Positions 3,375 to 35,250 are shown, counted from the first letter of the stretch. The stretch: 64,000 bases of DNA from Candidatus Flemingiibacterium sp. (GCA_045578725.1 JAZNKS010000052.1:8640-72639), one strand, 5' to 3'. Notes: generated from the sequence alone by a model not told the origin. Program-made: numbers and translations.

Positions 3375-4823
3375 TTGCGGAACATGGGGCGTTTCTTATT
3401 CAGCGGTGTGATTCTGGCGGCGACCGCCTTTATCCTTCGTGCGCTGGGAGTCGGATTCAATGCCTTCCTGTCGCGTGAACTCGGAACGGATGGTATGGGT
3501 TTGTTTACGCTGATTATGAGCCTGTACGGTCTTGCGGTGACGGTAGCTTCCTCCGGCGTGAATCTGGCTTCCGCCCGGATGTGCACCGAGGCTCTGTCCC
3601 ATCCGGGTGGGGAAGACCTTCTGGCAGCATCGCTGAAGCGATGTCTGCTTTATGCCCTTGTATGCGGAGGCGGCGCGGCAATCCTTCTGTTTGCGGGTGC
3701 CGAAATGATTGCTGTGCATTGGCTGGGGGACGGGCGGTGTACGCTTGCCCTGCGTCTGCTGGCGCTGAGTCTGCCGTTTATTGCCGGCTCCAACGTGCTG
3801 AACGGCTATTTCACGGCGGTCCGGAGAGCATACAAAAGCGCGGCAGCACAGATTTTCGAGCAGCTGCTGAAAATGGCCGTGACCGCGTGGCTGCTGCTTC
3901 ATGCGATCCCGGAAAAGAGCGGCGCGGCGGTGGAATATGCCTGTGCGGCAATTGTCGGAGGCGGTGCGCTGGCCGAGATCGGCTCCTTTCTTCTGACGGC
4001 GCTTCTGTACCGGATCGAACGGGCAAAAAGAAAGCCCGGCATTCTTCATGCCGGGCAGGGGATACTGCTTACGAAAAAGCTGCTTGGAATTGCCGTGCCG
4101 GTCGCGGCGGCGGCCTATATCCGCTCCGGCCTTTCCACGCTGGAGCATATTCTCATTCCGCGCGGACTCCGGAAGAATCCTCTGACCGCCGATACGGCGC
4201 TGGCCGCTTACGGCATGCTGTGCGGCATGGCGATGCCGGTGATCTTTTTCCCGACAGCGGTTCTTTATTCCTTCACCGGCCTGCTGATTCCCGAATTCAC
4301 GGAGGCTCATGCACGGGGGGAGAAAAAGCGGATCGGCCGCATGATAACCCGGGCAGTATGGGGAACGCTGATCTTTTCCGGCATCTGCATGGCGGTGATG
4401 ACGGCATTTGGCGAGAAGATCGGGATTCTCCTCTATGACAGCGTCGAGGCGGGAAGGTATATTGCGATCATGGCGCCGCTGGTGCCGGTGATGTATCTGG
4501 ATCACGCGGTGGATGCGATGCTGAAGGGGCTGAACGAGCAGCTCTATTCGATGAAGGTGAACATTTTTGATGCGGCACTCTGCACGCTGATGGTCTGGCA
4601 GCTCTGCCCGCGGATCGGAATCTGGGGCTATATCATCACAGTTTATCTGTCGGAGGCAATCAATGCGCTGCTGAGTCTGCACAGGCTCTGGCGGGTGGTC
4701 CGATGCGAAGGAGATCGGCCGCAGAAGAAGGCTATACCGCGAGATGCTTCTCGACCATCTCAACCACACATTCCAGCACCGCCGCCGATTCCTCGGGGGA
4801 AGCGGCACGCTCGGCATACTTGA
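3375..4823 (+). CDS. MOP-superfamily polysaccharide/lipid-II flippase, SpoVB-like
   Basis: Multi-TM ORF. The N-terminus (MGRFLFSGVILAATAFILRALGVGFNAFLSRELGTDGMGLF...) fits the SpoVB/MurJ pattern. The listed start is TTG 3375; ATG 3384 is equally possible. The last ~45 codons are low-complexity and overlap the convergent gene. Confidence 0.7.
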   Translation: MRNMGRFLFSGVILAATAFILRALGVGFNAFLSRELGTDGMGLFTLIMSLYGLAVTVASSGVNLASARMCTEALSHPGGEDLLAASLKRCLLYALVCGGGAAILLFAGAEMIAVHWLGDGRCTLALRLLALSLPFIAGSNVLNGYFTAVRRAYKSAAAQIFEQLLKMAVTAWLLLHAIPEKSGAAVEYACAAIVGGGALAEIGSFLLTALLYRIERAKRKPGILHAGQGILLTKKLLGIAVPVAAAAYIRSGLSTLEHILIPRGLRKNPLTADTALAAYGMLCGMAMPVIFFPTAVLYSFTGLLIPEFTEAHARGEKKRIGRMITRAVWGTLIFSGICMAVMTAFGEKIGILLYDSVEAGRYIAIMAPLVPVMYLDHAVDAMLKGLNEQLYSMKVNIFDAALCTLMVWQLCPRIGIWGYIITVYLSEAINALLSLHRLWRVVRCEGDRPQKKAIPRDASRPSQPHIPAPPPIPRGKRHARHT

Positions 4824-6180
4824 TCCGCTCGATCAGGTCGGTGATGGCGTGGATGGAGTCGAACTGCATACCGCCTGCGATCTTTCTTGACAGCTGGCGT
4901 GGGGTATCCGATTCCTTCAGATTCAGATTCATCCGCCCGAGCAGCTCGATCATGACCAGATACGAATAGGTCAGCTTCTCGCTGTCGGTGCGGCGAAGGG
5001 CCAGCTCGCTCCGGAAATCGCGGGCGGTGAAGCGCTTGTGCTCCAAAGCACGGCTCCGCGCGCCGGAGGGAACCCTTCCGAGCTTTTCGGTGGTGTCGCG
5101 GTAGTTGATGTCAATTCCCTGACGGGCATAGTCAATGTCGCCGGAACCCATGAACATCGCCATGAAATCATCCAGCAGGCGGCGGAGCCAGGCAAAGAAG
5201 CGCCGGAATTCCACCGTGCGGCCGAAGACGATGAAGACAATCAGCGAAATTCCGATCAGGATAAAGCCGAGGATGCTGAGATCCGCGAAGGAGCCGTCGG
5301 TGATGGCGGCAAAATCGCCGGAAACATTCTGCTGGAGAGTGTGCCGGTCGGCGGAATTCATGCCGACGATGTGATAGAGAATCAGATAGAAGAGCAGCTC
5401 CAGTATCAGCCAGGCACCGTTTACGAAGATATACAGAATGCCTCCGAAGGCGGCCGCGATCACCAGCGCCAGAAGAATCATCCGGATGTTGTAATACCGG
5501 GCCGAGGGGGTGATTTTCGTAACGGCGACACCGTTGTAGATCCGCATGATGTAGGACTGATTCATGATGAGGACGGCACAGATCATATAGAGAATGAAGA
5601 AAATGCCGACAAAGACCGGGCGGAGCCAGACGAAAATCATGAAGGAGATGCCGAGGGCAGTCAGCACAGCCCGGAGCGACATCAGCCGCGTGTACGGATA
5701 AAACTGTGTGACGGCACCGGCCACCGCCGGCAGAAAGAGCACCATGCTGTACAGGACGGGGACAAGCGAATCGGCATCCTGCCCGGCGATGAAGCCGCCG
5801 CGGATCCGGTCGATGATCCCGCCCAGAGCCTGGCAGAGAAGATACAGTACGGGAAGGAGCGGGAGAAGATATTTGACTTTGAAATAGCGGGTGAAGCCTT
5901 CATAGGAAAAATCGTCCCGCTTTTTCTGGCCGATGGCGGCAAGGAAGACCGCCTGCAGGAGCCATCCGGCAAAAAAGGTGAAAAGGGGCAGTAAGAATCC
6001 GGCAGCCGGTGATCCGAAGCAGGATACGGCGATCGGGTAGGCGAGCATTTCCACGATCATGGCGATGCCGAAGGCCGCCAGAACATGGCAGAGCGGCTCA
6101 ATCGAGAGCGCTCCTGCTGTCCGTCCGAGCTGTCCGGCAAAGCCGAGGATGCTCTGCAGGCGCTGTGTGAATGTATTCAT
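4732..6180 (-). CDS. Polytopic membrane protein with a C-terminal DUF4129-like domain (third gene of the MoxR operon)
   Basis: 482 aa. Many hydrophobic helices are followed by a soluble tail containing ...LKESDTPRQLSRKI... (DUF4129-type motif). It lies directly downstream of the DUF58 gene. Confidence 0.65.
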   Translation of the reverse strand: MNTFTQRLQSILGFAGQLGRTAGALSIEPLCHVLAAFGIAMIVEMLAYPIAVSCFGSPAAGFLLPLFTFFAGWLLQAVFLAAIGQKKRDDFSYEGFTRYFKVKYLLPLLPVLYLLCQALGGIIDRIRGGFIAGQDADSLVPVLYSMVLFLPAVAGAVTQFYPYTRLMSLRAVLTALGISFMIFVWLRPVFVGIFFILYMICAVLIMNQSYIMRIYNGVAVTKITPSARYYNIRMILLALVIAAAFGGILYIFVNGAWLILELLFYLILYHIVGMNSADRHTLQQNVSGDFAAITDGSFADLSILGFILIGISLIVFIVFGRTVEFRRFFAWLRRLLDDFMAMFMGSGDIDYARQGIDINYRDTTEKLGRVPSGARSRALEHKRFTARDFRSELALRRTDSEKLTYSYLVMIELLGRMNLNLKESDTPRQLSRKIAGGMQFDSIHAITDLIERIKYAERAASPEESAAVLECVVEMVEKHLAV

Positions 6181-6194
6181 AAGCGTTCCCCCGT

Positions 6195-7412
6195 TCAGAT
6201 TCCGACCTTGTAGGAATCGAAATAGGTCCTGAAGAAGACCTTGGCCCCGGCCGGCACCGTCTGGATTCCGCGGTTGGAGGTTGTGGCGTAGAAAATGACC
6301 TCGATGCCCCGGCTGGCCATCTGCTCCCGGAAGACCATCATTCGCTCGTCCAGGACGGAGGTGATCAGCACGATATTGCCGTTTTCGGCGAACTTGTGCG
6401 GATTTTCAAGGATGAAATCCAGCAGCTTTTCAATCGGCATGGAGAAGCGCATCGGAAACCTTGCCAACATCTGCATCGCTTCAAGCAATCCCTGCTTGCC
6501 GCAGAACGGCTCCGTGACGAGAATCTTCTGCCCGGTCTCGCTTTCGTCGGCCTTGCAGTCCGGTGCAAGGGCGGCCGGATCGGTGTTGGCGATCAGTCGG
6601 ACGGGGATGTTATCGGACAGAAACCGCTCCAGAAGCGAGGCGGCAACGGTGATGTTGTATTCGATGAATTCCGGATTGGACGGGACTTCGCTGTCCCGTT
6701 CGATCATCTGCGAGCAGCAGTTGAGGATGATATTGGACTGGATTTTCTGGACATACTCCTCCACATTGACCATCAGATGGCCGTGTGCGGCCGTGAGCTT
6801 CCAGTTGATTTTGTTCATCGGATCCAGCGGCGTATAATCTCTGGCGCCGCTCCGGAGCATAGGATCGGTGAGAAGGCTCTGATTGGTGACAATATCACCG
6901 GAAAAGTAGCGGGTGGAGGTGAAATCGCGCTCCAGATCCACCGCACGGGGAAGAACCGTTACGGTGGAGGATTTGCCCTCGGGCATGGTCACATTCTGTG
7001 AGATCATGTTGAAGCCGATCAGGTCGCCGGCGACAATCAGCACCTGATCCAGGCTGTAAACGCCCCTCTTTTTGCAGGAGATGCGCCAGCGGCGGCTGAT
7101 TTTCTGTCGTCCCTTCATGACGAACATACTCTCGATCGCACCGGTGTAATGATCGCTTCTCTTTTGGCCCTCGGCGGTGATCAGATGGAAGGCGAGGCCT
7201 TCCGGGAGAGCGGTGGTGACCTTGATATAGGGCAGAGGGAGCGCTTTTTCGTTGATCAGCTCCTCATACAGATAGACATCGTCACCGACGGTGGCCTCGG
7301 TTTTATCAAGCCGTGCCCGGTAGACGAGCTGATCGAAGGTGTATTTTTCAAAGAGCTTTTTCTGCACAAAATAAGCGATGAGCAGAACCAGCGCGGCGGC
7401 AATATACAGCAT
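6195..7412 (-). CDS. DUF58 domain protein (vWA-like fold; MoxR partner)
   Basis: 405 aa with an N-terminal TM helix. Its position between the MoxR ATPase and the DUF4129 protein is the standard MoxR-DUF58 arrangement. Confidence 0.7.
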   Translation of the reverse strand: MLYIAAALVLLIAYFVQKKLFEKYTFDQLVYRARLDKTEATVGDDVYLYEELINEKALPLPYIKVTTALPEGLAFHLITAEGQKRSDHYTGAIESMFVMKGRQKISRRWRISCKKRGVYSLDQVLIVAGDLIGFNMISQNVTMPEGKSSTVTVLPRAVDLERDFTSTRYFSGDIVTNQSLLTDPMLRSGARDYTPLDPMNKINWKLTAAHGHLMVNVEEYVQKIQSNIILNCCSQMIERDSEVPSNPEFIEYNITVAASLLERFLSDNIPVRLIANTDPAALAPDCKADESETGQKILVTEPFCGKQGLLEAMQMLARFPMRFSMPIEKLLDFILENPHKFAENGNIVLITSVLDERMMVFREQMASRGIEVIFYATTSNRGIQTVPAGAKVFFRTYFDSYKVGI

Positions 7413-7423
7413 GGCGGCCTCGC

Positions 7424-8380
7424 TTATCCGATCGGTGCGGGAACGGTATCCAGAATGTAATCGATGATCGTTTCGTTGGCGTTGGTGATGCGGGCCTGGC
7501 TCTGGGAGCGGGAGAGAATCCGGTGGGCCAATACCGGTACTGCTACCGCCTTTACATCATCGGGCAGGACAAAATCACGGCCGTTCATGGCAGCCCATGC
7601 CTTGGCGGTGCGCATCAGAGCAAGCGTTCCGCGGGGCGATACGCCGAGCCGCACCCGATCCGATTCGCGGGTGGCGACGGCGATGCGGACGATATATTCG
7701 CCGACCGTTTCGCTGACATGAACCTGTTTTACTTCCGCACGGGCACCGGCGATATCGGCGCCTGTACAGATGGGAGGCAGAGCCGGGAGCGGACTTTCGC
7801 CCGCATAGCCGGTCAGGATGGCCTTTTCTGCCTCAAAGCCCGGATAGCCGAGCGAGAGCTTCATGAGGAAACGGTCGATCTGGGCCTCCGGAAGCGGGAA
7901 GGTTCCCTGCGATTCGATGGGATTCTCCGTGGCGATGACGAAGAACGGCTCCTCCAGCATATAGGTTACGCCGTCCACGGTGACCTGCCGCTCCTCCATA
8001 GCCTCAAGAAGCGCCGACTGGGTGCGGGGTGTGGTGCGGTTGATTTCATCCGCAATGACGATATTGGAGAAGATCGGTCCGCGCCGGAAGATGAATTCGG
8101 TTGTCTTCTGATCGAAGAAATTGATGCCGGTGATGTCGCTGGGGAGAAGATCGGGCGTGAACTGGATGCGCTTCACATCTCCTGAGATGGAGCGGGCCAG
8201 GGCGCGGGCCAGGCTGGTTTTGCCGGTGCCGGGGATATCGTCCAGCAGAACATGACCGCCGGCAAGGAAGGCGGCGATGACAAGACGGATCCGGTCGCTT
8301 TTGCCGTAGATCACGCGGCTGATGTTGCTTTCAAGCTGTTGGGCGAGCTGCTCACATTTCATGGGGGAGTCCTCCTGCAT
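7424..8380 (-). CDS. MoxR-family AAA+ ATPase
   Basis: 318 aa. Walker A GHVLLDDIPGTGKTSLARALA, Walker B VIADEINRTTPRTQSALLEAMEE. Typical MoxR length. Confidence 0.92.
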   Translation of the reverse strand: MQEDSPMKCEQLAQQLESNISRVIYGKSDRIRLVIAAFLAGGHVLLDDIPGTGKTSLARALARSISGDVKRIQFTPDLLPSDITGINFFDQKTTEFIFRRGPIFSNIVIADEINRTTPRTQSALLEAMEERQVTVDGVTYMLEEPFFVIATENPIESQGTFPLPEAQIDRFLMKLSLGYPGFEAEKAILTGYAGESPLPALPPICTGADIAGARAEVKQVHVSETVGEYIVRIAVATRESDRVRLGVSPRGTLALMRTAKAWAAMNGRDFVLPDDVKAVAVPVLAHRILSRSQSQARITNANETIIDYILDTVPAPIG

Positions 8381-27966: not shown

Positions 27967-29913
27967 TTATTCAACAACCTCGATGATATCGTGGAGGTCG
28001 ACGCGGCCAACCTCTACATAGGCGCGGCCGTCGCGGTATTCAAAGGGAAGCTCACGGTTGTCAGGACGGAGGATCAGCGCCTTCGGAGCCTTGTCAAGCG
28101 CGATGGAGAGCTTGATGTCAACGATCGGAGGGATGAAGTCCTCGGTACCGGTGGAAATGCTTCCGTGATTGCCGTTGGCATTGACCAGCTGGATGAAGAG
28201 CTTGCCGTCCTTCTTCAGATTGACGATTTCCAGCATACCGAGCGCGGATTCAATCTTGGTGGCAGGCGTATAGAGCTTGTCGCAGATGGTACGGATCAGA
28301 TCGCGGTGCGTGCACTGAACGCAGTCATAGTACTGACCGCCGAGATCGGCCGCCAGCGCGGTGACGGTACCTTTACCGAAGGGAATGATGACAGCGGCAG
28401 ATTCGTTTGCTGCACGGGGGGCGCCACCCATCTTGGCCACAACCTCGCCCTGTGCGGTGACATTGTGGGCATCGCGGAGCATACCGAATGCCTCGCCGTC
28501 AACGGTGTACCACATCCATGCCTCCTCGCGCTTTTCACTGTCAAGCGTGAGCGGAACGCCGGCTTTGGCGAATACATCGCAGACCTTGCGGCCGGCCAGC
28601 AGCAGATTGCCGCCGTTCTTTGCGTAGTCAAGAAGCTCGGCGATCATTTCCGGCTCCAGGCCCTCGAACAGTTCGGGGATGGCGATCAGCTTGTAATCGC
28701 TGCAATGGCCCTTCAGCGTATGCTCGCAGGCGATTTCGGTGGAATGACCGGTGTCGCAGAGAACGCAGGTCAGACCGGCGGCGCGGTTCATGCCGCAGCG
28801 GCTGAACAGGTTGCCGGATTCACGGTAGCGGTCGAAGGTGGAGAGCAGAACAACGGCCTCGTGCTCGGGATTGCCGTGTACGCAGTAATCCTGACGGGCG
28901 CGGACATAGTCGGCGACCGGCTTCATGCGGCGGATCTGATCAATACGGGGCGAGCCGTCGGGATACTGGGTGATGTAGTTCTGGAAGCCGCCGCCGACAG
29001 CCAGTACGGTTGCCGCTTCCTGCATGATCTGAATCGGATGCTTGGGAAGACCGCCGGGCTTGCCGTTCTGCATGGCGCGGAAGTTCCAGGCCATGAGATC
29101 CCATGTGCGGCCCTGCTGTGCGAGCGAACGGCCGGCATAGCGGGCGATATTGAAGGCATTCCAGGGCGAGAAGTCGCCGGACAGAAAGTCAACGCCGGCA
29201 CAGACTTCCTCGGGCATATGGTCCGAAAAGGCCCAGTTGGATGCGATCTGGAAGTTCGGGTACTTGGCATGAACCGTATCGGTGTAATGGCGGACATAGC
29301 GGCGGAAGAGCTCGCGGTTGAAGTCGCGGTATTCCACATAGTAAGGATCCTCACGCTTGACGGGAAGCTGACCGTTCAGCGAAATGCCGGTTTCCTTTTC
29401 GAAAGCCGCGATGGTGTCGGGATGATAGTCAAGGCAGGTGCCCCAGCATTCGCCATCGATCCAGATGCCGTCCACACCGTACTTGCCGGCCAGCTCCATC
29501 ATCTGCGGAATGAGCAGATTGTCGGCATAGCCGCCCATCGTGCGGGTTACGCTCTCGGAACGGGTACCGTCCGCATTGACAACGGCATCCTCCGGATGTT
29601 CCTTGCAGTAGCGGTTGTCGATGACACCGGAATAGTGCATATAGAGGGCAACGCCTTCCTCACGGGTAACGCGGCGCCACATGGCAAGCGGGTCGCCGAT
29701 GATTTCGGGCATGGCGTTTTCGCACGCGGTGGGATAGGAAGCCCAGCCGGGATGACCCTTGCAGTCGATCTGCAGAAAGTCGGGCCGGATGAGCTGGCAG
29801 ATTTCGCGGATCTCTTCCTCCTTCAGTGTCGCACCGACTGCCGGACGGCCCGGGTAGGGGCTGGCATGAAAGTCGAAGTGAAGGCCGAATACACTCTCGG
29901 AACGTTTTTTCAT
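27967..29913 (-). CDS. TIM-barrel glycoside-hydrolase-like protein (GH29/GH42-related; family uncertain) with a C-terminal GATase1-like/trimerisation-like domain
   Basis: I prefer the ATG at 29913, which follows GGAGGA (MKKRSESVFGLHFDFHASP...). ...AGKYGVDGIWIDGECWG... is typical of fucosidase-like barrels. The listed N-terminal extension is unnecessary. Confidence 0.55.
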   Translation of the reverse strand: MKKRSESVFGLHFDFHASPYPGRPAVGATLKEEEIREICQLIRPDFLQIDCKGHPGWASYPTACENAMPEIIGDPLAMWRRVTREEGVALYMHYSGVIDNRYCKEHPEDAVVNADGTRSESVTRTMGGYADNLLIPQMMELAGKYGVDGIWIDGECWGTCLDYHPDTIAAFEKETGISLNGQLPVKREDPYYVEYRDFNRELFRRYVRHYTDTVHAKYPNFQIASNWAFSDHMPEEVCAGVDFLSGDFSPWNAFNIARYAGRSLAQQGRTWDLMAWNFRAMQNGKPGGLPKHPIQIMQEAATVLAVGGGFQNYITQYPDGSPRIDQIRRMKPVADYVRARQDYCVHGNPEHEAVVLLSTFDRYRESGNLFSRCGMNRAAGLTCVLCDTGHSTEIACEHTLKGHCSDYKLIAIPELFEGLEPEMIAELLDYAKNGGNLLLAGRKVCDVFAKAGVPLTLDSEKREEAWMWYTVDGEAFGMLRDAHNVTAQGEVVAKMGGAPRAANESAAVIIPFGKGTVTALAADLGGQYYDCVQCTHRDLIRTICDKLYTPATKIESALGMLEIVNLKKDGKLFIQLVNANGNHGSISTGTEDFIPPIVDIKLSIALDKAPKALILRPDNRELPFEYRDGRAYVEVGRVDLHDIIEVVE

Positions 29914-30032: not shown

Positions 30033-30061
30033 TTGACAATTCCTGCAGGGCGTGGTATAAT
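30033..30061 (+). promoter_or_regulatory. Perfect-consensus sigma-A promoter with an extended -10
   Basis: TTGACA (30033-30038), a 17-nt spacer, then TGgTATAAT (30053-30061). An A/T-rich UP-like tract lies upstream (30004-30030). Confidence 0.8.
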
Positions 30062-30067
30062 ATATAA

Positions 30068-30172
30068 CACGCCACAAGAGACGGCGTACAATTTCAGACC
30101 TTTGTTTTTATAAGTGAGCATTTTTCGACGGGAGATTTATGCCCATTTATAAAAACAAAGGTCTCTTTTTTC
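30068..30172 (+). ncRNA. Candidate ~105-nt small RNA, or 5' attenuator, of unknown class
   Basis: The predicted TSS is ~7 nt after the -10 element. 5' hairpin ACGCC/GGCGT (30070-30088). Then an 18-bp perfect stem AGACCTTTGTTTTTATAA (30096-30113) / TTATAAAAACAAAGGTCT (30147-30164), followed by CTTTTTT (30165-30171). The ends are predicted, not measured. Confidence 0.45.
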
Positions 30173-30406
30173 CGTTCCTTGACAATTTCATACCGCAAAT
30201 CCTGCCCGGCAGGCAGAACGACACGCACAGCAGCCTCATATTTTTCAAATACATGATTTTGAATGCTGTTTGGCACCGCCGCACGCGGTGCGGACATTCC
30301 GATGTCCATTTTTCGCAAATCCCTACAACTGAATACCTTATGTCAAAACGTGTCGTGACCCGCCGGGCGGGCAAAAAAACAACTATAAATTAAGGAGGAA
30401 AATCTT

Positions 30407-31867
30407 ATGCTGAATCAACTGATGCATGAGCAGAACCGCACGCGGACCGAAAACGGCGCCCTTGCCTGGCATTCCACGGGCGGATGCTGCCTTGATTTCT
30501 TTGCGGCTGCCGGCGCTGTCCGCGGTGCGGAGGATGAGCGGGTGCTGAATCTGTTTCTCCGTGCCTATGCGGAGAATCCCGACGATGCGATGAAGATCCT
30601 GTTTTATGCCCGGGATGTACGGGGCGGGCTTGGCGAGCGGCGGATTTTCCGCCTGATTCTGAGCCGGATGGCCTTTACGCATCCCGAAAGTGCGGCAAGA
30701 AATCTGGCTCACATTCCCGAGTACGGGCGGTGGGACGATATGCTGGCCGTGCTGGATACCCCCTGCGAAGCGGAGGCGGCCCGACTGATCGGCCGTCAGC
30801 TGGAGCGGGACAGACAGGCGATGGCTGCAGGAAAATCCGTATCCCTTTTAGCCAAGTGGCTGCCCTCGCTGAACACTTCGTCCTCGGCTACACGGGAGCA
30901 GGCCGGAAAGCTCCGCCGATTACTCGGCATGAACGAGCGGGAATACCGGCGGTGCCTGTCCTCGCTCCGAGCGGCATCAAAAGTGCTGGAGTGCGATCTC
31001 TCGCGCGGCGATTATGGCTTTACCTACGAAAAGCTGCCCTCCAAGGCGCTTCTTCAGTACCGGCGCGCCTTTCTTCGTCATGATAAGAAGCGCTATCGGA
31101 AGTATCTGGAGGATGTGCTCGCCGGCCGGGCTAAGGGAAAGGCCGCGGCGCTTTATCCCTATGAGTTGGTGCAGAGATGCATCGATGAGCGGGTACAGAC
31201 CGATGACGAAATCCATGCGCTGGATGCCGCATGGCGATCCCTGCCCGACTTCACCGACGGGCGGAATGCGCTGGCGGTGGTGGACGGCTCCGGCTCCATG
31301 TACTGGGGCGAAGGATCGCCGCGTCCGATTGATGTAGCGCTCTCGCTTGGACTCTATTTCGCCGAGCGGAACCGGGGGCACTTCCGCAATCATTTCATCA
31401 CCTTCTCCGAGTCGCCCCGGCTGGTGAAGGTGCAGGGCCGCAATCTGCGCGATCGGGTGCAGTACTGCATGAGCTACAACGAGGTTGCCAACACCGATCT
31501 CTACAATGTGTTCATGCTGATTCTGGTCACCGCAATCAAAAATCACCTGCCGCAGGAGGAGCTGCCCGAGCTGCTGTATATCCTGTCGGATATGGAATTC
31601 GACCGCGGTGTCACTCCGGATAAAACGGTTTATCAGGATGCAAAGGAAAAATTTGAGGAATACGGCTACCGTCTGCCGACGGTGGTATATTGGAATATCG
31701 CCAGCCGGAACGAGCAGTATCCGGTTATGGCAGACGAGAACGGAACGGCGCTGGTTTCCGGCGCCAGCCCGTCGGTCTTTTCCCTGATGATGGAACAGAA
31801 TATCACGCCGGATGCGCTGATGCGGCAGGTACTGGACAGCGACCGGTACCGCGCGATCTGCGCCTGA
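30407..31867 (+). CDS. DUF2828-like protein: helical N-terminal domain plus C-terminal vWA domain with intact MIDAS
   Basis: 486 aa. TAAGGAGG RBS lies 8 nt upstream. N-terminus MLNQLMHEQNRTRTENGALAWHSTGGCCLDFF...ILFYARDVRGGLGERR fits the DUF2828 pattern from memory. MIDAS residues: VVDGSGSM, ANTD, LSDMEFD. Confidence 0.75.
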   Translation: MLNQLMHEQNRTRTENGALAWHSTGGCCLDFFAAAGAVRGAEDERVLNLFLRAYAENPDDAMKILFYARDVRGGLGERRIFRLILSRMAFTHPESAARNLAHIPEYGRWDDMLAVLDTPCEAEAARLIGRQLERDRQAMAAGKSVSLLAKWLPSLNTSSSATREQAGKLRRLLGMNEREYRRCLSSLRAASKVLECDLSRGDYGFTYEKLPSKALLQYRRAFLRHDKKRYRKYLEDVLAGRAKGKAAALYPYELVQRCIDERVQTDDEIHALDAAWRSLPDFTDGRNALAVVDGSGSMYWGEGSPRPIDVALSLGLYFAERNRGHFRNHFITFSESPRLVKVQGRNLRDRVQYCMSYNEVANTDLYNVFMLILVTAIKNHLPQEELPELLYILSDMEFDRGVTPDKTVYQDAKEKFEEYGYRLPTVVYWNIASRNEQYPVMADENGTALVSGASPSVFSLMMEQNITPDALMRQVLDSDRYRAICA

Positions 31868-31884
31868 AGGAAAGGAGAATTGGC

Positions 31885-32586
31885 TTGACTTATGTAATGT
31901 CTGACCTCCACGGTCAGTATGAAAAATACGCGGCGATGCTGAAGACGATCCGCTTTTCGGATTCGGATGAGCTGTATGTGCTCGGCGATGTGGTGGATCG
32001 CGGCCCGTCGCCGATGAAGATTCTGACGGATATGAGTATGCGGCCCAATGTGTACCCGATCATGGGCAACCATGATTCGATCGCTCTGCAGATTCTTTCC
32101 CGGCTTCAGGTGGAGATTACCGAGGAGAATTACGCCACCCAGATCAATGCCGGGCTGATGCAGGCGATGCTTGCCTGGCAAATGGAGGGCGGCAATGAAA
32201 CGATCACCGATTTCCGCCGCCTTTCGCCGGACGATCGGGACTTTATCCTCGATTATCTCTCCGATTTTGCTCCCTATGAGGAATTAAAGGTGAAGGGAGA
32301 GCGCTTTCTGTTGGTTCACGGGGGGCTTGACAGCTTCGATCCCGCCCGCCCGATCGAGGATTATGCGCTCCATGAGCTGACCGATGCACGTGCCGATTAC
32401 ACCCGCCGCTATTTTGAGGATCGCTGGTTGGTGACCGGGCACACGCCGACCGCCTATATCGGCAGGGAATGGGCGGGGCGGATCTACCGTGGGAACGGGC
32501 ATATTGCCGTTGACAGCGGGGCCTGCTTCGGAAAGCCGCTCGGATGTATCCGTCTGGAGGATTTCCGGGAGTTTTATGCGGAATAA
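31885..32586 (+). CDS. PPP-family metallophosphoesterase (Ser/Thr-phosphatase / ApaH-like)
   Basis: Motifs MSDLHGQ, GDVVDRGP, GNHD, HGG and GHTP. I favour TTG 31885, which is 6 nt after AAAGGAGA. ATG 31897 is the alternative start. Confidence 0.85.
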   Translation: MTYVMSDLHGQYEKYAAMLKTIRFSDSDELYVLGDVVDRGPSPMKILTDMSMRPNVYPIMGNHDSIALQILSRLQVEITEENYATQINAGLMQAMLAWQMEGGNETITDFRRLSPDDRDFILDYLSDFAPYEELKVKGERFLLVHGGLDSFDPARPIEDYALHELTDARADYTRRYFEDRWLVTGHTPTAYIGREWAGRIYRGNGHIAVDSGACFGKPLGCIRLEDFREFYAE

Positions 32587-32591
32587 ACGAA

Positions 32592-32632
32592 CCGGGCTGT
32601 GTACGCGGAATGTACACAGCCCGGATTTTTTT
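32592..32632. terminator. Strong bidirectional terminator
   Basis: CCGGGCTGTGTAC (32592-32604) pairs with GTACACAGCCCGG (32612-32624), followed by ATTTTTTT. It lies between the phosphatase (+) and the GH38 gene (-). Confidence 0.85.
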
Positions 32633-32643
32633 ATGGATGGGAA

Positions 32644-35124
32644 TCAGCCGAGAAGACCTTCGATCAGGTCGGTTTCGGTGGCCTTGCCGCCGCTGATGCG
32701 GATGGATTTGATTTCGTATGCGCCGAAGCTGCCGCTCCATGCGGTGCCCTCACAGACGAGGGAAGCCGATGCGGCCTTTTCGGTCGGGTTGAACAGACGG
32801 ATGATGACACCGTTTTTGTCCTCAGCCTGCTTGTAAGCGGTGATCTGAACCACATCGCTGTCCATGCGCAGGGGGGAGATCGGAAGCGTTCCGACGCCGG
32901 TGGGGTAGAAGGAGTAGATCATCGGCTGGACGTTGAATTCCTGTGCCGTGCGGCCTGCCTTGTCAAGGATTGCCTCGCGTGCGCCGAACTCAAAGCCGTA
33001 GCTGAAGTCGCGCTCACCCTGCTCGATGTAGGGCATGGAGCGATCCTGCGGCATGGTTTCGCGGCCGCTGATCGGATGGGCGGTGTAGGAGGGCGAACGG
33101 AGGAGGGTCAGATGCAGCAGACCGGCCTCGCCTTCGAAGGATGAGCCGTAGGTGCCGGCATTGACGGCGAGGATGGCATTGGTATCGGAACAGAGGGCGA
33201 GATACTTCTGGGAAACATTCTCGCGGCCGTCATCAAAGAGTTCTTCGCGGCCGTATGCCTCCTCACCGATGCAGACGGATTTGCCGAAGGTGGAGGGAAC
33301 CAGCATCTTGACCATCTTCTGCTTCTCGTTCCATACGATGCGGACATCACAGCGCATGGTGCCGTCATTGGAGAGCACATACTTCACGATGGCGCGGGAG
33401 GTGCGGTAACCGAAGATCGCTTCCACGATGGTGCGGACAGCGCCGCTCTCGATGACACGGACGGCTTCCAGCGTGTCGGGCGTGTGGCAGAAATCGGCGG
33501 CATCCGCGCGGCTCAGCAGCTCAAAGCGGCCGATAATATTCCGCCATGCGGTGTCCTCCATGAACCACGGGTCATAGTTATCCTCATAAACCTCGAGGGC
33601 GAAGGCGCCTTCCTTGACATAGGATACGCCGCCCTTGGTGATGACATCGACAAGACCGGTGGACTTGCTGATTTCAATGTGCGTGCCGTTGGCATCGAAG
33701 AGGAAATGGGTATCGTTTTCGGCCATTTCCGGCTTCGGCTTGGCGGGAATGATATCGAAGGCGCAGTCGAAGCGGTTGAGCTTCATCGGCTCCAGCTTGG
33801 CGCGGAAGACCACGCGCTTGCGCCAGTCAAGCGGAAGCGTAGAGGCCTCCTTCTCGCACTGGGAGGGAATGATCTCGCCCTTTTCATTGTACAGACGGGG
33901 CTGGGAGAATTCGATGTTCCAGTTCTGGTCCCACAGCATGAACTCGGAGACCCAATCGCCCTCGATTTCGTACGGATAGGGATTGTAGGCGAAGACCGGA
34001 ATCTTATCGGGATCGGCCTTGGGCTGACCGGCGGCCAGCGCAAAGAAGGCACGTGCTTTGACGCGGGAGAGGATCTCCTGCGCGTGGTCGAGCATACGGA
34101 TGCCCATTTCCTCGGCGGCCTGAATGGACGAGCCGGGGAGAATATCGTGGAACTGTACGGTGAGAATATCGTACATGGCGGCGGCCAGCTCCTCGGTCGG
34201 ATACTGGATCAGGCCGGCGGCGGAGGCATGGCTGCACATGGATTCGGTGAGGAAGTAGATGTTCTCGGTCTGGCGGTACTTCTGCTTGATGCGGACCTGG
34301 CTGGTATAGCATCCGGGCGACCAGGGATTCAGGCTCTTGTCGATGACAGGCAGAGAGTGCTTGGCTTTGACCTCGGCGACATGGTCGTCGGGATTGGAAT
34401 GGATGAGCTCAACGCCCTGATCCTTGAGTTCAGCCGTCATGGCTGTGATGTCCTCAAGGTCCTGCTTGGACGGTCCGCCGCCGTGGTTGCCGATGCCCCA
34501 CAGGCAGAGGAAGAAATCGTCCTCCTTGCAGAGATCGATATATTCACGAATCTTGGCGCCGGCCTTGCCCTTTCCGGACTGATAGCCGCCGTGAAGACGG
34601 ACAGCGGTAACCTCGCTTCCGTCATAGCCCTTCCAGGTGAATTCGTTGGAGGGGAATTTGAAGAACTGATCTCCTCCGGGCCGCATGAAGAGATAGCCGT
34701 CATAGCCGCTCTTCTTCATGATCTGGACGAGGCCGCGGGTGTGACCGAAGGGGTCAACATTGACAGCGGTGGTCGGAGCAACGCCGAATTTTTCCATGAA
34801 ATAGCGGCGGCCCTCTAAAATCTGACGGACAAAGCCTTCGCCGCTGGGCATATTGCAGTCCGGCTGGAGATGCCAGCCGCCCATGATCTTCCACTTACCG
34901 CGCTTGACAAGATCCTGAATGTGAGCAAACAGGGACGGGTCGTATTCTTCGATCCAGCGGTAAAGAAGGGCTTCGTTGTGGCAGAAAACGAACTGCTCAT
35001 ACTCCTCGCAGAAATCGGCGGCGATGCGGAAGGTCGAGAGGGCCTCGGCGGCGCCTTCTTCCCATTCCCACTGCCACACCGGGTCGAGGTGAGCGTTACA
35101 GACAAGATGAATGCGTTTGGACAT
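32644..35124 (-). CDS. GH38 alpha-mannosidase
   Basis: I prefer the ATG at 35124, which follows GAAGGAGA. MSKRIHLVCNAHLDPVWQWEWEEG..., GGWHLQPDCNMPSGE and NVDPFGHTRG are GH38 N-domain signatures. About 826 aa. Confidence 0.9.
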   Translation of the reverse strand: MSKRIHLVCNAHLDPVWQWEWEEGAAEALSTFRIAADFCEEYEQFVFCHNEALLYRWIEEYDPSLFAHIQDLVKRGKWKIMGGWHLQPDCNMPSGEGFVRQILEGRRYFMEKFGVAPTTAVNVDPFGHTRGLVQIMKKSGYDGYLFMRPGGDQFFKFPSNEFTWKGYDGSEVTAVRLHGGYQSGKGKAGAKIREYIDLCKEDDFFLCLWGIGNHGGGPSKQDLEDITAMTAELKDQGVELIHSNPDDHVAEVKAKHSLPVIDKSLNPWSPGCYTSQVRIKQKYRQTENIYFLTESMCSHASAAGLIQYPTEELAAAMYDILTVQFHDILPGSSIQAAEEMGIRMLDHAQEILSRVKARAFFALAAGQPKADPDKIPVFAYNPYPYEIEGDWVSEFMLWDQNWNIEFSQPRLYNEKGEIIPSQCEKEASTLPLDWRKRVVFRAKLEPMKLNRFDCAFDIIPAKPKPEMAENDTHFLFDANGTHIEISKSTGLVDVITKGGVSYVKEGAFALEVYEDNYDPWFMEDTAWRNIIGRFELLSRADAADFCHTPDTLEAVRVIESGAVRTIVEAIFGYRTSRAIVKYVLSNDGTMRCDVRIVWNEKQKMVKMLVPSTFGKSVCIGEEAYGREELFDDGRENVSQKYLALCSDTNAILAVNAGTYGSSFEGEAGLLHLTLLRSPSYTAHPISGRETMPQDRSMPYIEQGERDFSYGFEFGAREAILDKAGRTAQEFNVQPMIYSFYPTGVGTLPISPLRMDSDVVQITAYKQAEDKNGVIIRLFNPTEKAASASLVCEGTAWSGSFGAYEIKSIRISGGKATETDLIEGLLG

Positions 35125-35250
35125 AATGCATTTCTCCTTCAGAATAATAATATCGCTGTTCACATTGTACCATATCACAGCGCAAAAGTCAACACAAAGG
35201 CGATGAATTTCGGATATTTTCCGTGGATGGCCGATTGACGGACGGTTGAT

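Follow-up and report, generated by a model that had tools for sequence, protein, structure and literature searches.

This study concerns a compact unit on the plus strand of a 64,000-nt stretch of DNA from Candidatus Flemingiibacterium sp. (GCA_045578725.1 JAZNKS010000052.1:8640-72639), which we refer to as the window and whose positions are counted from its first letter. The unit runs from 30033 to 32632 and consists of a promoter, a structured leader, a gene for a protein of the DUF2828 family (CDS1), a gene for a metallophosphoesterase (CDS2), and a terminator. We consider it likely that the locus is a compact ribonucleoprotein (RNP) operon of the Ro60/Y-RNA type, built around an RNA family that has not been described. 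The features on which this reading is based are as follows (MFE, minimum free energy).

30033-30061, plus strand: sigma-70 promoter, with TTGACA at 30033-38, a 17-nt spacer, and TGgTATAAT at 30053-61 (extended -10)
30069-30087, plus strand: small 5' hairpin, ACGCC...GGCGU, in the MFE fold, just past the likely transcription start
30096-30171, plus strand: long hairpin (30096-30164; inverted repeat I1) and then U6, with the conserved apical loop UUUCGACGGGA
30166-30194, plus strand: U/C-rich tract after the hairpin, UUUUUUCCGUUCCUUGACAAUUUCAUACC, with the form UUUUGUUCUUUGAcAAcUGAAUA in relatives (conserved columns 111-128 of alignment A5)
30201-30371, plus strand: Y-RNA-like module, from covariance model R1 and the MFE fold, ending 35 nt ahead of CDS1
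30201-30214 with 30357-30371, plus strand: P1, the closing stem, from RNAduplex and the MFE fold
30218-30224 (ACGACAC) with 30350-30356 (GUGUCGU), plus strand: P2, a 7-bp stem
30227-30232, plus strand: invariant ACAGCA
30228-30269 (region), plus strand: P3, an AU-rich hairpin, placed by eye and in the window MFE fold only
30273-30291, plus strand: P4 hairpin
30292-30307, plus strand: P5 hairpin
30308-30337, plus strand: conserved single strand, AUUUUUCGCAAAUCCCUACAACUGAAUACC
30392-30398, plus strand: Shine-Dalgarno sequence of CDS1, AAGGAGG, 8 nt ahead of the ATG at 30407, read from the sequence
30407-31867, plus strand: CDS1, 486 aa, DUF2828 and DUF7788 (Pfam); helical and TROVE-like at the N-terminus, followed by a vWA domain with intact MIDAS at the C-terminus
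31885-32586, plus strand: CDS2, 233 aa, PPP-family metallophosphoesterase, with a TTG start 17 nt past the CDS1 stop and the motifs DLHG, GDVVDRG, and GNHD
32592-32632, plus strand: intrinsic terminator closing the unit, 14 pairs (9 GC) at 32592-32624 and then ATTTTTTTAT (inverted repeat I3)

Much of this plan had been set out in a preliminary description made from the DNA alone, and its structural elements were borne out by the searches. The promoter that it placed matches the consensus at 12/12 positions plus the TG in a consensus scan, and a TTGACA-17-TG.TATAAT promoter also heads the homologous RNA regions of relatives (loci L027, L081, L084-L086, L230, and L238). Its closing terminator was recovered by a terminator scan and is bidirectional in shape, with the T-run on the plus strand. 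The phosphatase that it saw 17 nt past CDS1, with all three motifs present, matches PF00149 (Metallophos) at 1.1e-15 (59 bits, cut-off 21.5). Lastly, the structured leader of ~340 nt that it reported measures 345 nt and has an MFE of -117.6 kcal/mol (z -8.2), with 0/100 shuffles as stable, and the hairpin of 18 perfect base pairs followed by U6 that it noted there is the outer part of a longer one, whose arms of 26 nt are 92% complementary in a repeat search.

Two sets of relatives were available for comparison. Loci of the window's own clade come from metagenome contigs and encode proteins with 58-61% identity to CDS1 (L081-L086, L230-L239, and L027), while a distant set comprises 80 species-representative genomes with homologues at 47-55% identity, mostly Oscillospiraceae, Lachnospiraceae, and other Clostridia; the window's source genome is not among the species representatives scanned. 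The leader is homologous to regions of 650-830 nt that precede the gene in the nearest relatives (nhmmer, 8e-14 to 7e-10 at six loci and 7.5e-4 at L085). It is composed of two separable elements, a 5' hairpin/terminator cassette and the Y-like module.

The module scores 79.5 bits (E 1e-15) with R1, the core covariance model, and is the sole R1 copy in the window, where the next best match reaches 14 bits; most close relatives have two copies in tandem. Across 20 module copies, 91.9% of the P2, P4, and P5 cells are paired, compared with 83.6 ± 0.9% in shuffles (0/500 as high) and 16-56% when the partners are slid, and 12 of the 20 pairs have changed on both sides, where 4.8 are expected. The effective diversity of this strong set is low, at 3.05 effective sequences. 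P1 was found in each sequence separately with RNAduplex: 19/20 copies have it (L238 is uninformative, its 5' flank being cut short), at lengths of 9-26 bp and energies of -11.5 to -50 kcal/mol, and its sequences are unrelated among copies. The MFE fold of the window predicts P1-P5 on its own, MAFFT with RNAalifold alone recovers P2 and P4 only, and a regular-expression (regex) scan that is independent of R1 also picks out 30218-30356. The single strand has the consensus UUUCGCAcAnnCCCcACAAyUGAAUA in relatives. A second hairpin followed by U5 had been reported at 30292-30313; the hairpin itself is real (30292-30307), but it is P5 of the module, and the U-run is part of the conserved single-stranded motif and so not obviously of a terminator. 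A search of the region against Rfam at E <= 10, and one of the whole window at the gathering threshold, returned hairpin-shaped chance matches only (mir-2001, rli48). At clade loci with two modules (L081 4739-4990, L084, L235, and L237) the 3' strand of the first closing stem, GAACCGGAAGAAA, could pair with a CUUUCGGUUC segment past the second module. Judged by eye, this alternative pairing would lengthen the second stem, after which a U-run immediately precedes the ribosome-binding site, and may constitute an attenuator switch.

The assignment of CDS1 to the DUF2828 family, made in the preliminary description, was confirmed by Pfam. From the N- to the C-terminus the protein matches PF11443 (DUF2828) at 1e-35 (123.8 bits, cut-off 29) and PF25043 (DUF7788) at 1.4e-44 (152.4 bits, cut-off 27.1). 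The MIDAS residues of its vWA domain, D293, S295, S297, T363, and D395, had been read as intact and do not vary among 34 homologues. An AlphaFold model built on the same number of homologues (pLDDT 86.2, pTM 0.86) was compared with the PDB using Foldseek, and all of the top 13 matches are Ro60/TROVE proteins (E 2e-8 to 9e-6). These include X. laevis Ro (1yvr, E 2.9e-8, TMq 0.62), D. radiodurans Rsr (2nvo), the Ro60 of Thermus phage phiLo (9l5y), and human Ro60, and they align over the full length (~500-580 aligned columns, TM 0.45-0.63); the matches that follow are isolated vWA domains at E >= 6e-3. The predicted structure thus puts CDS1 in the Ro60 fold class. Support for such an affinity comes from phages as well. 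PHROG 850, annotated 'RNA-binding protein', matches CDS1 end to end (1.5e-131), homologues occur in 710 phage genomes, and the name given to the protein in mycobacteriophage records is 'Ro-like RNA binding protein', so that the Ro-likeness of the DUF2828 family is already recognised in phage annotation. A large protein collection holds >6445 homologues, the closest at 61% identity. Our literature search found DUF2828 mentioned only incidentally in plant gene lists and in connection with mimivirus-like sequences.

The gene has recurrent neighbours in the distant set. RtcB (PF01139, 7.6e-64) lies directly downstream on the same strand at 38/65 informative loci, and a WYL/WCX-type regulator of ~305 aa, with weak but consistent Pfam matches, lies upstream on the same strand at 34/67. 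Directly upstream of many of the distant DUF2828 genes there are tRNA or tRNA-like genes, several of which have abnormal anticodon loops. An operon that recurs in Clostridia has the order WYL/WCX regulator, 1-9 structured RNAs (some of them tRNA-like or YrlA-like), DUF2828, and RtcB; examples are L004, L006, L013, L021, L025, L028, L039, L060, L063, and L064, among others (gene at ~5001-6460).

The RNA of the window has counterparts at these distant loci. R1 gives 85 weak matches (18-39 bits) in RtcB-type loci, all on the gene strand, and 83 of them lie within 1 kb upstream of the DUF2828 start, where 5.2% would be expected (binomial P ~ 7e-104). Over 106 distinct R1-match sequences P2 is 99.7% paired and 7/7 of its pairs have changed on both sides, in an alignment that is fitted to the model; we therefore ran an independent check with a regex that specifies a 7-bp stem, 2-3 nt, and ACAGCA. 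It found 250 units within 1.2 kb upstream of the gene, distributed over 86 of 93 DUF2828 loci with up to 9 per locus, compared with 33 overall on the opposite strand and 95 in 2.5 Mb of unrelated DNA, an enrichment of ~65-fold. That a conserved RNA lies upstream of the gene in homologous loci, a point in favour of the preliminary description, is seen both in this near-universal signature and in the compensatory changes. The unrelated background was taken from two IMG/VR scans with short degenerate patterns (62 + 80 loci, L087-L228). These loci had been candidates for relatives and were rejected, as nhmmer shows that none is related; one metagenome scan with the hairpin pattern gave two loci only.

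The units have the consensus 5' A-AAG-nnn-C-nu-ACAGCAAu ... G-nnn-CUU-GU 3' and a median length of 81 nt, and they share with the window the 7-bp closing stem, the next 2 nt, and ACAGCAA. Their interiors are variable, some being plain hairpins and others containing mimics of a T arm (GGUUCGAAUCC), a D arm (AGCUCAAUGGUAGAGC), or an anticodon arm, and the units are arrayed in tandem, up to 9 together, as far as ~1 kb from the gene. Against the Y RNA and YrlA models of Rfam, relatives' units score 24-43 bits (gathering score 69). Those with a T arm and then a D arm match YrlA below its gathering score (L033 39.3 bits, L073 43.4 bits), with the basal stem of YrlA aligning on P2. Rfam 15 holds no threshold-level match to the stem + ACAGCA signature, and the sole paper to emerge from a text search of the literature for the motif was a pattern-search study of Dictyostelium RNAs from 2006. 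The RNA family and its near-universal linkage to the DUF2828 gene therefore appear to be undescribed.

A phage genome provides a further case. Gp53 of mycobacteriophage LeBron, one of the proteins recorded as 'Ro-like RNA binding protein', is 41% identical to CDS1 over its full length and belongs to the same family (PHROG 850). An unannotated 360-nt gap after gp53 (L244, 5449-5701) holds three units, each with a stem, two nucleotides, and then (A/G)CAGCAAU; in the middle unit a T arm precedes a D arm, as in YrlA. LeBron thus resembles the window both in the protein and in the ACAGCAA-stem units that adjoin its gene. Unlike in the window, the units are downstream of the gene, and the phage records annotate the protein only. 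The metallophosphoesterase gp46 of LeBron was considered as a homologue of CDS2 and rejected (BLASTP E 0.36).

A known arrangement close to that of these loci is the rsr-yrlBA-rtcBA RNA-repair operon of Salmonella, in which rsr is accompanied by the Y RNAs YrlA and YrlB and followed by RtcB, together with the M. smegmatis rsr locus (PMC4201824, PMC7790460). CDS1 resembles Ro60/Rsr in its predicted fold, a ring-type helical domain joined to a vWA/MIDAS domain, and DUF2828 loci resemble Ro60/Y-RNA loci in that structured RNAs, every one with a terminal closing stem, are encoded beside the gene and in its orientation. Some relatives' units share with YrlA the order T arm, D arm, and most of the distant relatives share with Salmonella an RtcB gene after the Ro-type gene; the ligand-sensing regulator upstream is the CARF protein RtcR in Salmonella and a WYL protein in the DUF2828 relatives. 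In contrast to Y RNAs, which have a bulged Ro-binding helix, the DUF2828 units have a 7-bp stem and ACAGCAA, and unlike at the Salmonella and M. smegmatis rsr loci they form arrays of up to 9. Moreover, the window has a PPP phosphatase where Salmonella has RtcB, and lacks a regulator gene. The Ro60/Rsr analogy offered in the preliminary description has gained from the full-length Foldseek matches, the conserved upstream RNA, the sub-threshold YrlA-like units of relatives, and the RtcB that follows most distant relatives. Since membership in TROVE, YrlA, and Y_RNA failed at the sequence level and RtcB is lacking, we treat the locus as a variant of the Ro60/Y-RNA type that stands outside those families proper. 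Its sub-type is set apart by the P3-P5 junction head with its conserved single strand, by a long closing stem, and by a PPP phosphoesterase instead of RtcB.

If the locus is such an operon, the strong, constitutive-looking promoter would give a single transcript comprising the long hairpin with its U-run, the module of ~170 nt, and the mRNA of CDS1 and CDS2, from which the module may be processed to a discrete RNA. CDS1 would bind the module through the closing stem and the adjacent ACAGCA, as Ro60 does on the basal stem of Y RNA, and the variable head of the RNA (P3-P5 and the conserved single strand) would gate or tether substrates or partner enzymes. The resulting RNP could act in the quality control or repair of damaged or misfolded RNA. 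For most relatives the partner enzyme would be the RNA ligase RtcB, with RNA heads that mimic parts of tRNA. In the window's clade a phosphoesterase would take the place of RtcB, plausibly trimming RNA ends (2',3'-cyclic or 3'-phosphates) or removing nucleotide caps. The 5' hairpin with its U-run, and the tract complementary to the ribosome-binding site, would probably set the amounts of transcript and protein.

A function of CDS2 at RNA ends is plausible because it resembles lambda phosphatase, ApaH, and PrpA and, more faintly, the phosphatase domain of Pnkp. CDS2 belongs to the same metallophosphoesterase superfamily as lambda phosphatase, ApaH, and the Pnkp domain and shares their PPP motifs, and it has weak matches to ApaH, PrpE, Pnkp, and lambda phosphatase. 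It matches PHROG 246, 'NinI-like Ser/Thr phosphatase', at 1.3e-34, and among PDB sequences ApaH at 6e-12 and lambda phosphatase at 1.5e-4. Unlike those of true members, its NCBIfam matches (ApaH, PrpE, Pnkp) are partial and far below the cut-offs (PRK00166, 64 bits against 176; Pnkp, 19.7 against 750), and it has neither a kinase nor a ligase domain. A 2',3'-cyclic phosphate at an RNA end is a substrate for both lambda phosphatase and the phosphatase domain of Pnkp; ApaH takes off Np4 caps. Phosphoesterases are also, as Burroughs and Aravind reportedly described in 2016, standard in RNA-repair gene sets.

Several observations weigh against reading the locus as an operon of the Ro60/Y-RNA type. 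The relationship of CDS1 to Ro60 rests on a predicted structure: Pfam gives no match of CDS1 to PF05731 (TROVE) at E <= 0.01, and neither phmmer with CDS1 nor a profile of 34 sequences found Ro60 among PDB sequences, so that similarity to Ro60/TROVE is not detectable in sequence. The Rfam models YrlA (RF02553) and Y_RNA (RF00019) do not match the window module even at E <= 10. Neither ARAGORN nor the Rfam tRNA model found a tRNA-like domain or tmRNA in the window, and the canonical bulged Ro-binding helix is absent from its RNA, in agreement with the preliminary description, which had seen neither feature; a tRNA-like domain is present in some relatives' units. No RtcB was found in the 64-kb window by tblastn with the RtcB proteins of three relatives, and no WYL regulator was found there. 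Alignments made with a covariance model are biased toward the structure of the model, whose E-values are rough, and most of the loci sampled come from gut and rumen Clostridia. Furthermore, the scan for promoters and terminators found none between the module and CDS1, and the module may be part of a 5' UTR only. Finally, a CDS2-like phosphatase within 5 kb was found at 0/80 distant DUF2828 loci, and the closest homologue of CDS2 (P0122, 70% identity) and another, P0237, each stand alone in a different context, where neither an upstream module nor a nearby DUF2828 gene or RNA was found.

The last of these points bears on the place of CDS2 in the unit. It is possible, if doubtful, that CDS2 is an unrelated housekeeping PPP phosphatase which happens to share the transcript, and that the functional unit consists of the RNA and the Ro-like protein. 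The family is large (1738 matches), and four informative clade loci (L027, L084, L235, and L238) are without the phosphatase. Nevertheless, at six of the 10 informative clade loci (L082/83, L085, L086, L237, and L239) a homologue of the same length, 233 aa, follows DUF2828 in the same order, and the phosphatases of these six independent loci are only ~57-60% identical to that of the window, where the two genes, 17 nt apart, also have one terminator in common. The idea of the phosphatase as a constant companion of DUF2828 was rejected in view of the distant loci and the stand-alone homologues. The partnership proposed in the preliminary description thus holds within the clade, where the link is real, but is loose.

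A different account of the leader draws in part on its first element, the 5' cassette. Its order in relatives is a consensus promoter, one or two small hairpins (at the position equivalent to 30069-30087), the long hairpin, a U-run, and a conserved UUGUUCUUUGAcAA tract; a CUCUUUG tract similar to the U/C-rich tract of the window is also conserved. The 111-nt segment that holds the long hairpin has an MFE of -40.9 kcal/mol (z -7.4). Thirteen loci have kept the hairpin, whose consensus comprises 24 pairs, with compensatory changes at 9 of them, and whose apical loop has the consensus UUUyrACGkGAUAG; together with its U6 it looks like an intrinsic terminator or processing element. The U/C-rich tract is complementary to the Shine-Dalgarno region of CDS1, and the MFE fold of the window pairs the two (about 30166-30181 with 30392-30403), so the tract might mask the ribosome-binding site. 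The motif ACAAyUGAAUA is present both at the region of this tract and within each module. At L229 (642-775, minus strand) the cassette of promoter, long hairpin, and UCUUUGAC stands alone, before an unrelated gene for a small, apparently membrane protein. As the cassette occurs there without the module, it is a separable regulatory or processing element.

The main rival to an RNP operon is a leader that is a purely cis-acting 5' UTR, in which the hairpin attenuates transcription, the tract masks the ribosome-binding site, and the module serves either as an autoregulatory site bound by CDS1 or some other factor or as a riboswitch-like sensor, with no free small RNA being made. It draws on the single promoter and the uninterrupted path from module to CDS1, on a conserved hairpin with U6 that resembles an intrinsic terminator, on the predicted pairing with the Shine-Dalgarno region, and on the presence of the cassette before the unrelated L229 gene, as would be the case for a general regulatory element. 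It fits poorly, however, with the tandem arrays of relatives, which reach 9 units and extend ~1 kb from the gene, and with the placement of the LeBron units downstream, neither of which is like a cis-regulator; nor would it account for units that are YrlA-like or that carry T-arm, D-arm, or anticodon-arm mimics. Co-transcription by itself is not at odds with an RNP, given that in Salmonella too the Y RNAs share a transcript with rsr before they are processed (PMC4201824). A purely cis-acting leader is therefore unlikely in our judgement, although roles in cis and in an RNP are mutually compatible.

The wider neighbourhoods of the clade are more varied than that of the window. Like the window, L233, L235, and L239 carry two-gene or one-gene insertions among glycosidase genes, and some clade loci are near resolvase, FtsK, or TIR genes. 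The DUF2828-phosphatase pair often has small ORFs of unknown function after it, together with a nucleotidyltransferase that is cytidylyltransferase-like and a NADAR-DarT1 protein (PF22397, 5.7e-82), as at L085 5537-8434, L086 7400-8739, L237 4662-6399, and L082 4642-6456. These extra neighbours, which have no counterpart in the window, suggest a larger gene set for the processing of RNA ends or ADP-ribose. L238 has a diverged module (39.6 bits) and neither RtcB nor the phosphatase as a neighbour. Beside it lies a 434-aa protein, for which Pfam gives a weak match to the Card1 endonuclease, and after it come an unknown protein of 598 aa and a large one that is AAA/FtsH-like (836-2140 and 4571-7473).

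A conflict or anti-phage system that pairs a vWA protein with a phosphatase, the former sensing invasion and the latter serving as effector or regulator, was also suggested in the preliminary description and might seem to suit a family common in phages with clade members near resolvase, FtsK, TIR, NADAR-DarT1, and weakly Card1-like genes, but it is very improbable and went unsupported, in that PADLOC has no family matching CDS1 or CDS2 at E <= 0.1, the fold matches full-length Ro60 and not vWA sensors alone, the dominant partners, RtcB and structured RNAs, point to RNA repair (which may itself counter ribotoxins), and the unit has a host-like GC content with neither mobile-element genes nor flanking repeats found nearby in the window.

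The unit stands between two genes on the opposite strand, which the preliminary description took for glycosidases.

32644-35178, minus strand: GH38 alpha-mannosidase, downstream flank (Pfam, 2.8e-49)
27967-29913, minus strand: 648-aa protein, upstream flank, with weak GHL6/fucosidase matches below the Pfam cut-offs

Around them the window is given over to carbohydrate use: it encodes PfkB kinases, an AraC regulator, and a protein of the raffinose-synthase/Sip1 family (PF05691). A divergent near-consensus promoter at 30000-29972 on the minus strand (11/12; TTGACT, 17 nt, and TATAAT with a TG) faces the glycosidase-like gene upstream; with the promoter at 30033-30061 on the plus strand, the intergenic region thus holds strong promoters back to back. 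Neither target-site duplications nor terminal inverted repeats were found around the unit. Wholly within the leader there is an ATG ORF of 84 aa (30139-30393, plus strand); given its overlap with covarying RNA helices, it is in all likelihood not a gene.

The short units of relatives also bear a likeness to a class of eukaryotic RNAs. The Class I RNAs of Dictyostelium (RF01414) are 42-65 nt long, have a 6-bp terminal stem that varies by compensatory changes, begin with AAG and end with CUGU, and carry an 11-nt motif, CCUUACAGCAA, right after the 5' strand (PMC7919456, PMC5054030). Both they and the bacterial units have a terminal stem of 6-7 bp with compensatory variation and an otherwise variable interior. 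The Class I motif is almost identical to the bacterial nnUACAGCAAu, which likewise comes right after the 5' strand, and the ends are similar (5' AAG and 3' CUGU against 5' AAAG and 3' CUUGU). Two units of L033 (4409-4465 and 4670-4728) and the consensus of 85 units (alignment A4) carry the motif (C)UUACAGCAA just past the 5' strand, and their ends are AAG...CU(U)GU. The two L033 units match RF01414 at 29.2 and 21 bits, below its gathering score of 41.5, and eight further loci gave no match to it at E <= 1. The short units of relatives share all four Class I features, slightly shifted, and the window module, which is ~140 nt long, keeps the stem, ACAGCA, and the 3' G and has no RF01414 match. 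Unlike the bacterial units, the Class I RNAs have an RRM protein as their only known partner.

DUF2828 proteins are themselves found in plants and are reported in mimivirus-like sequences. We regard a kinship of the bacterial units with Class I RNAs as an unproven lead. On the scale of the family (>6000 protein clusters, 710 phage genomes, plants, and giant viruses), we would tentatively propose a broader reading, about which we are doubtful as a whole. DUF2828 would be a second, very large Ro-like family with stem + ACAGCAA RNAs as its cognates, the dictyostelid Class I RNAs would be eukaryotic members working with a DUF2828-type protein, and the heads of the units would be interchangeable, taking the form of tRNA-arm mimics, YrlA-like domains, or the P3-P5 head of the window.

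Surveillance by Ro60 and Y RNA is a classic but poorly understood system, and bacteria with a recognisable Ro60 amount to only some 5%. Should DUF2828 proteins function as Ro analogues, each with RNAs of its own family, Ro-type RNPs would be far more widespread than believed, including among gut and rumen Firmicutes and hundreds of phages. The arrays of RNAs that mimic parts of tRNA would then, if the reading is true, be a natural library for how RNAs direct repair by RtcB or end-trimming by a phosphoesterase. Class I RNAs have been thought to be confined to dictyostelids, with a mechanism that has gone unexplained for two decades, and the resemblance to Dictyostelium would offer a concrete candidate mechanism, and one that can be put to the test, for RNAs whose function has been in question since 2004.

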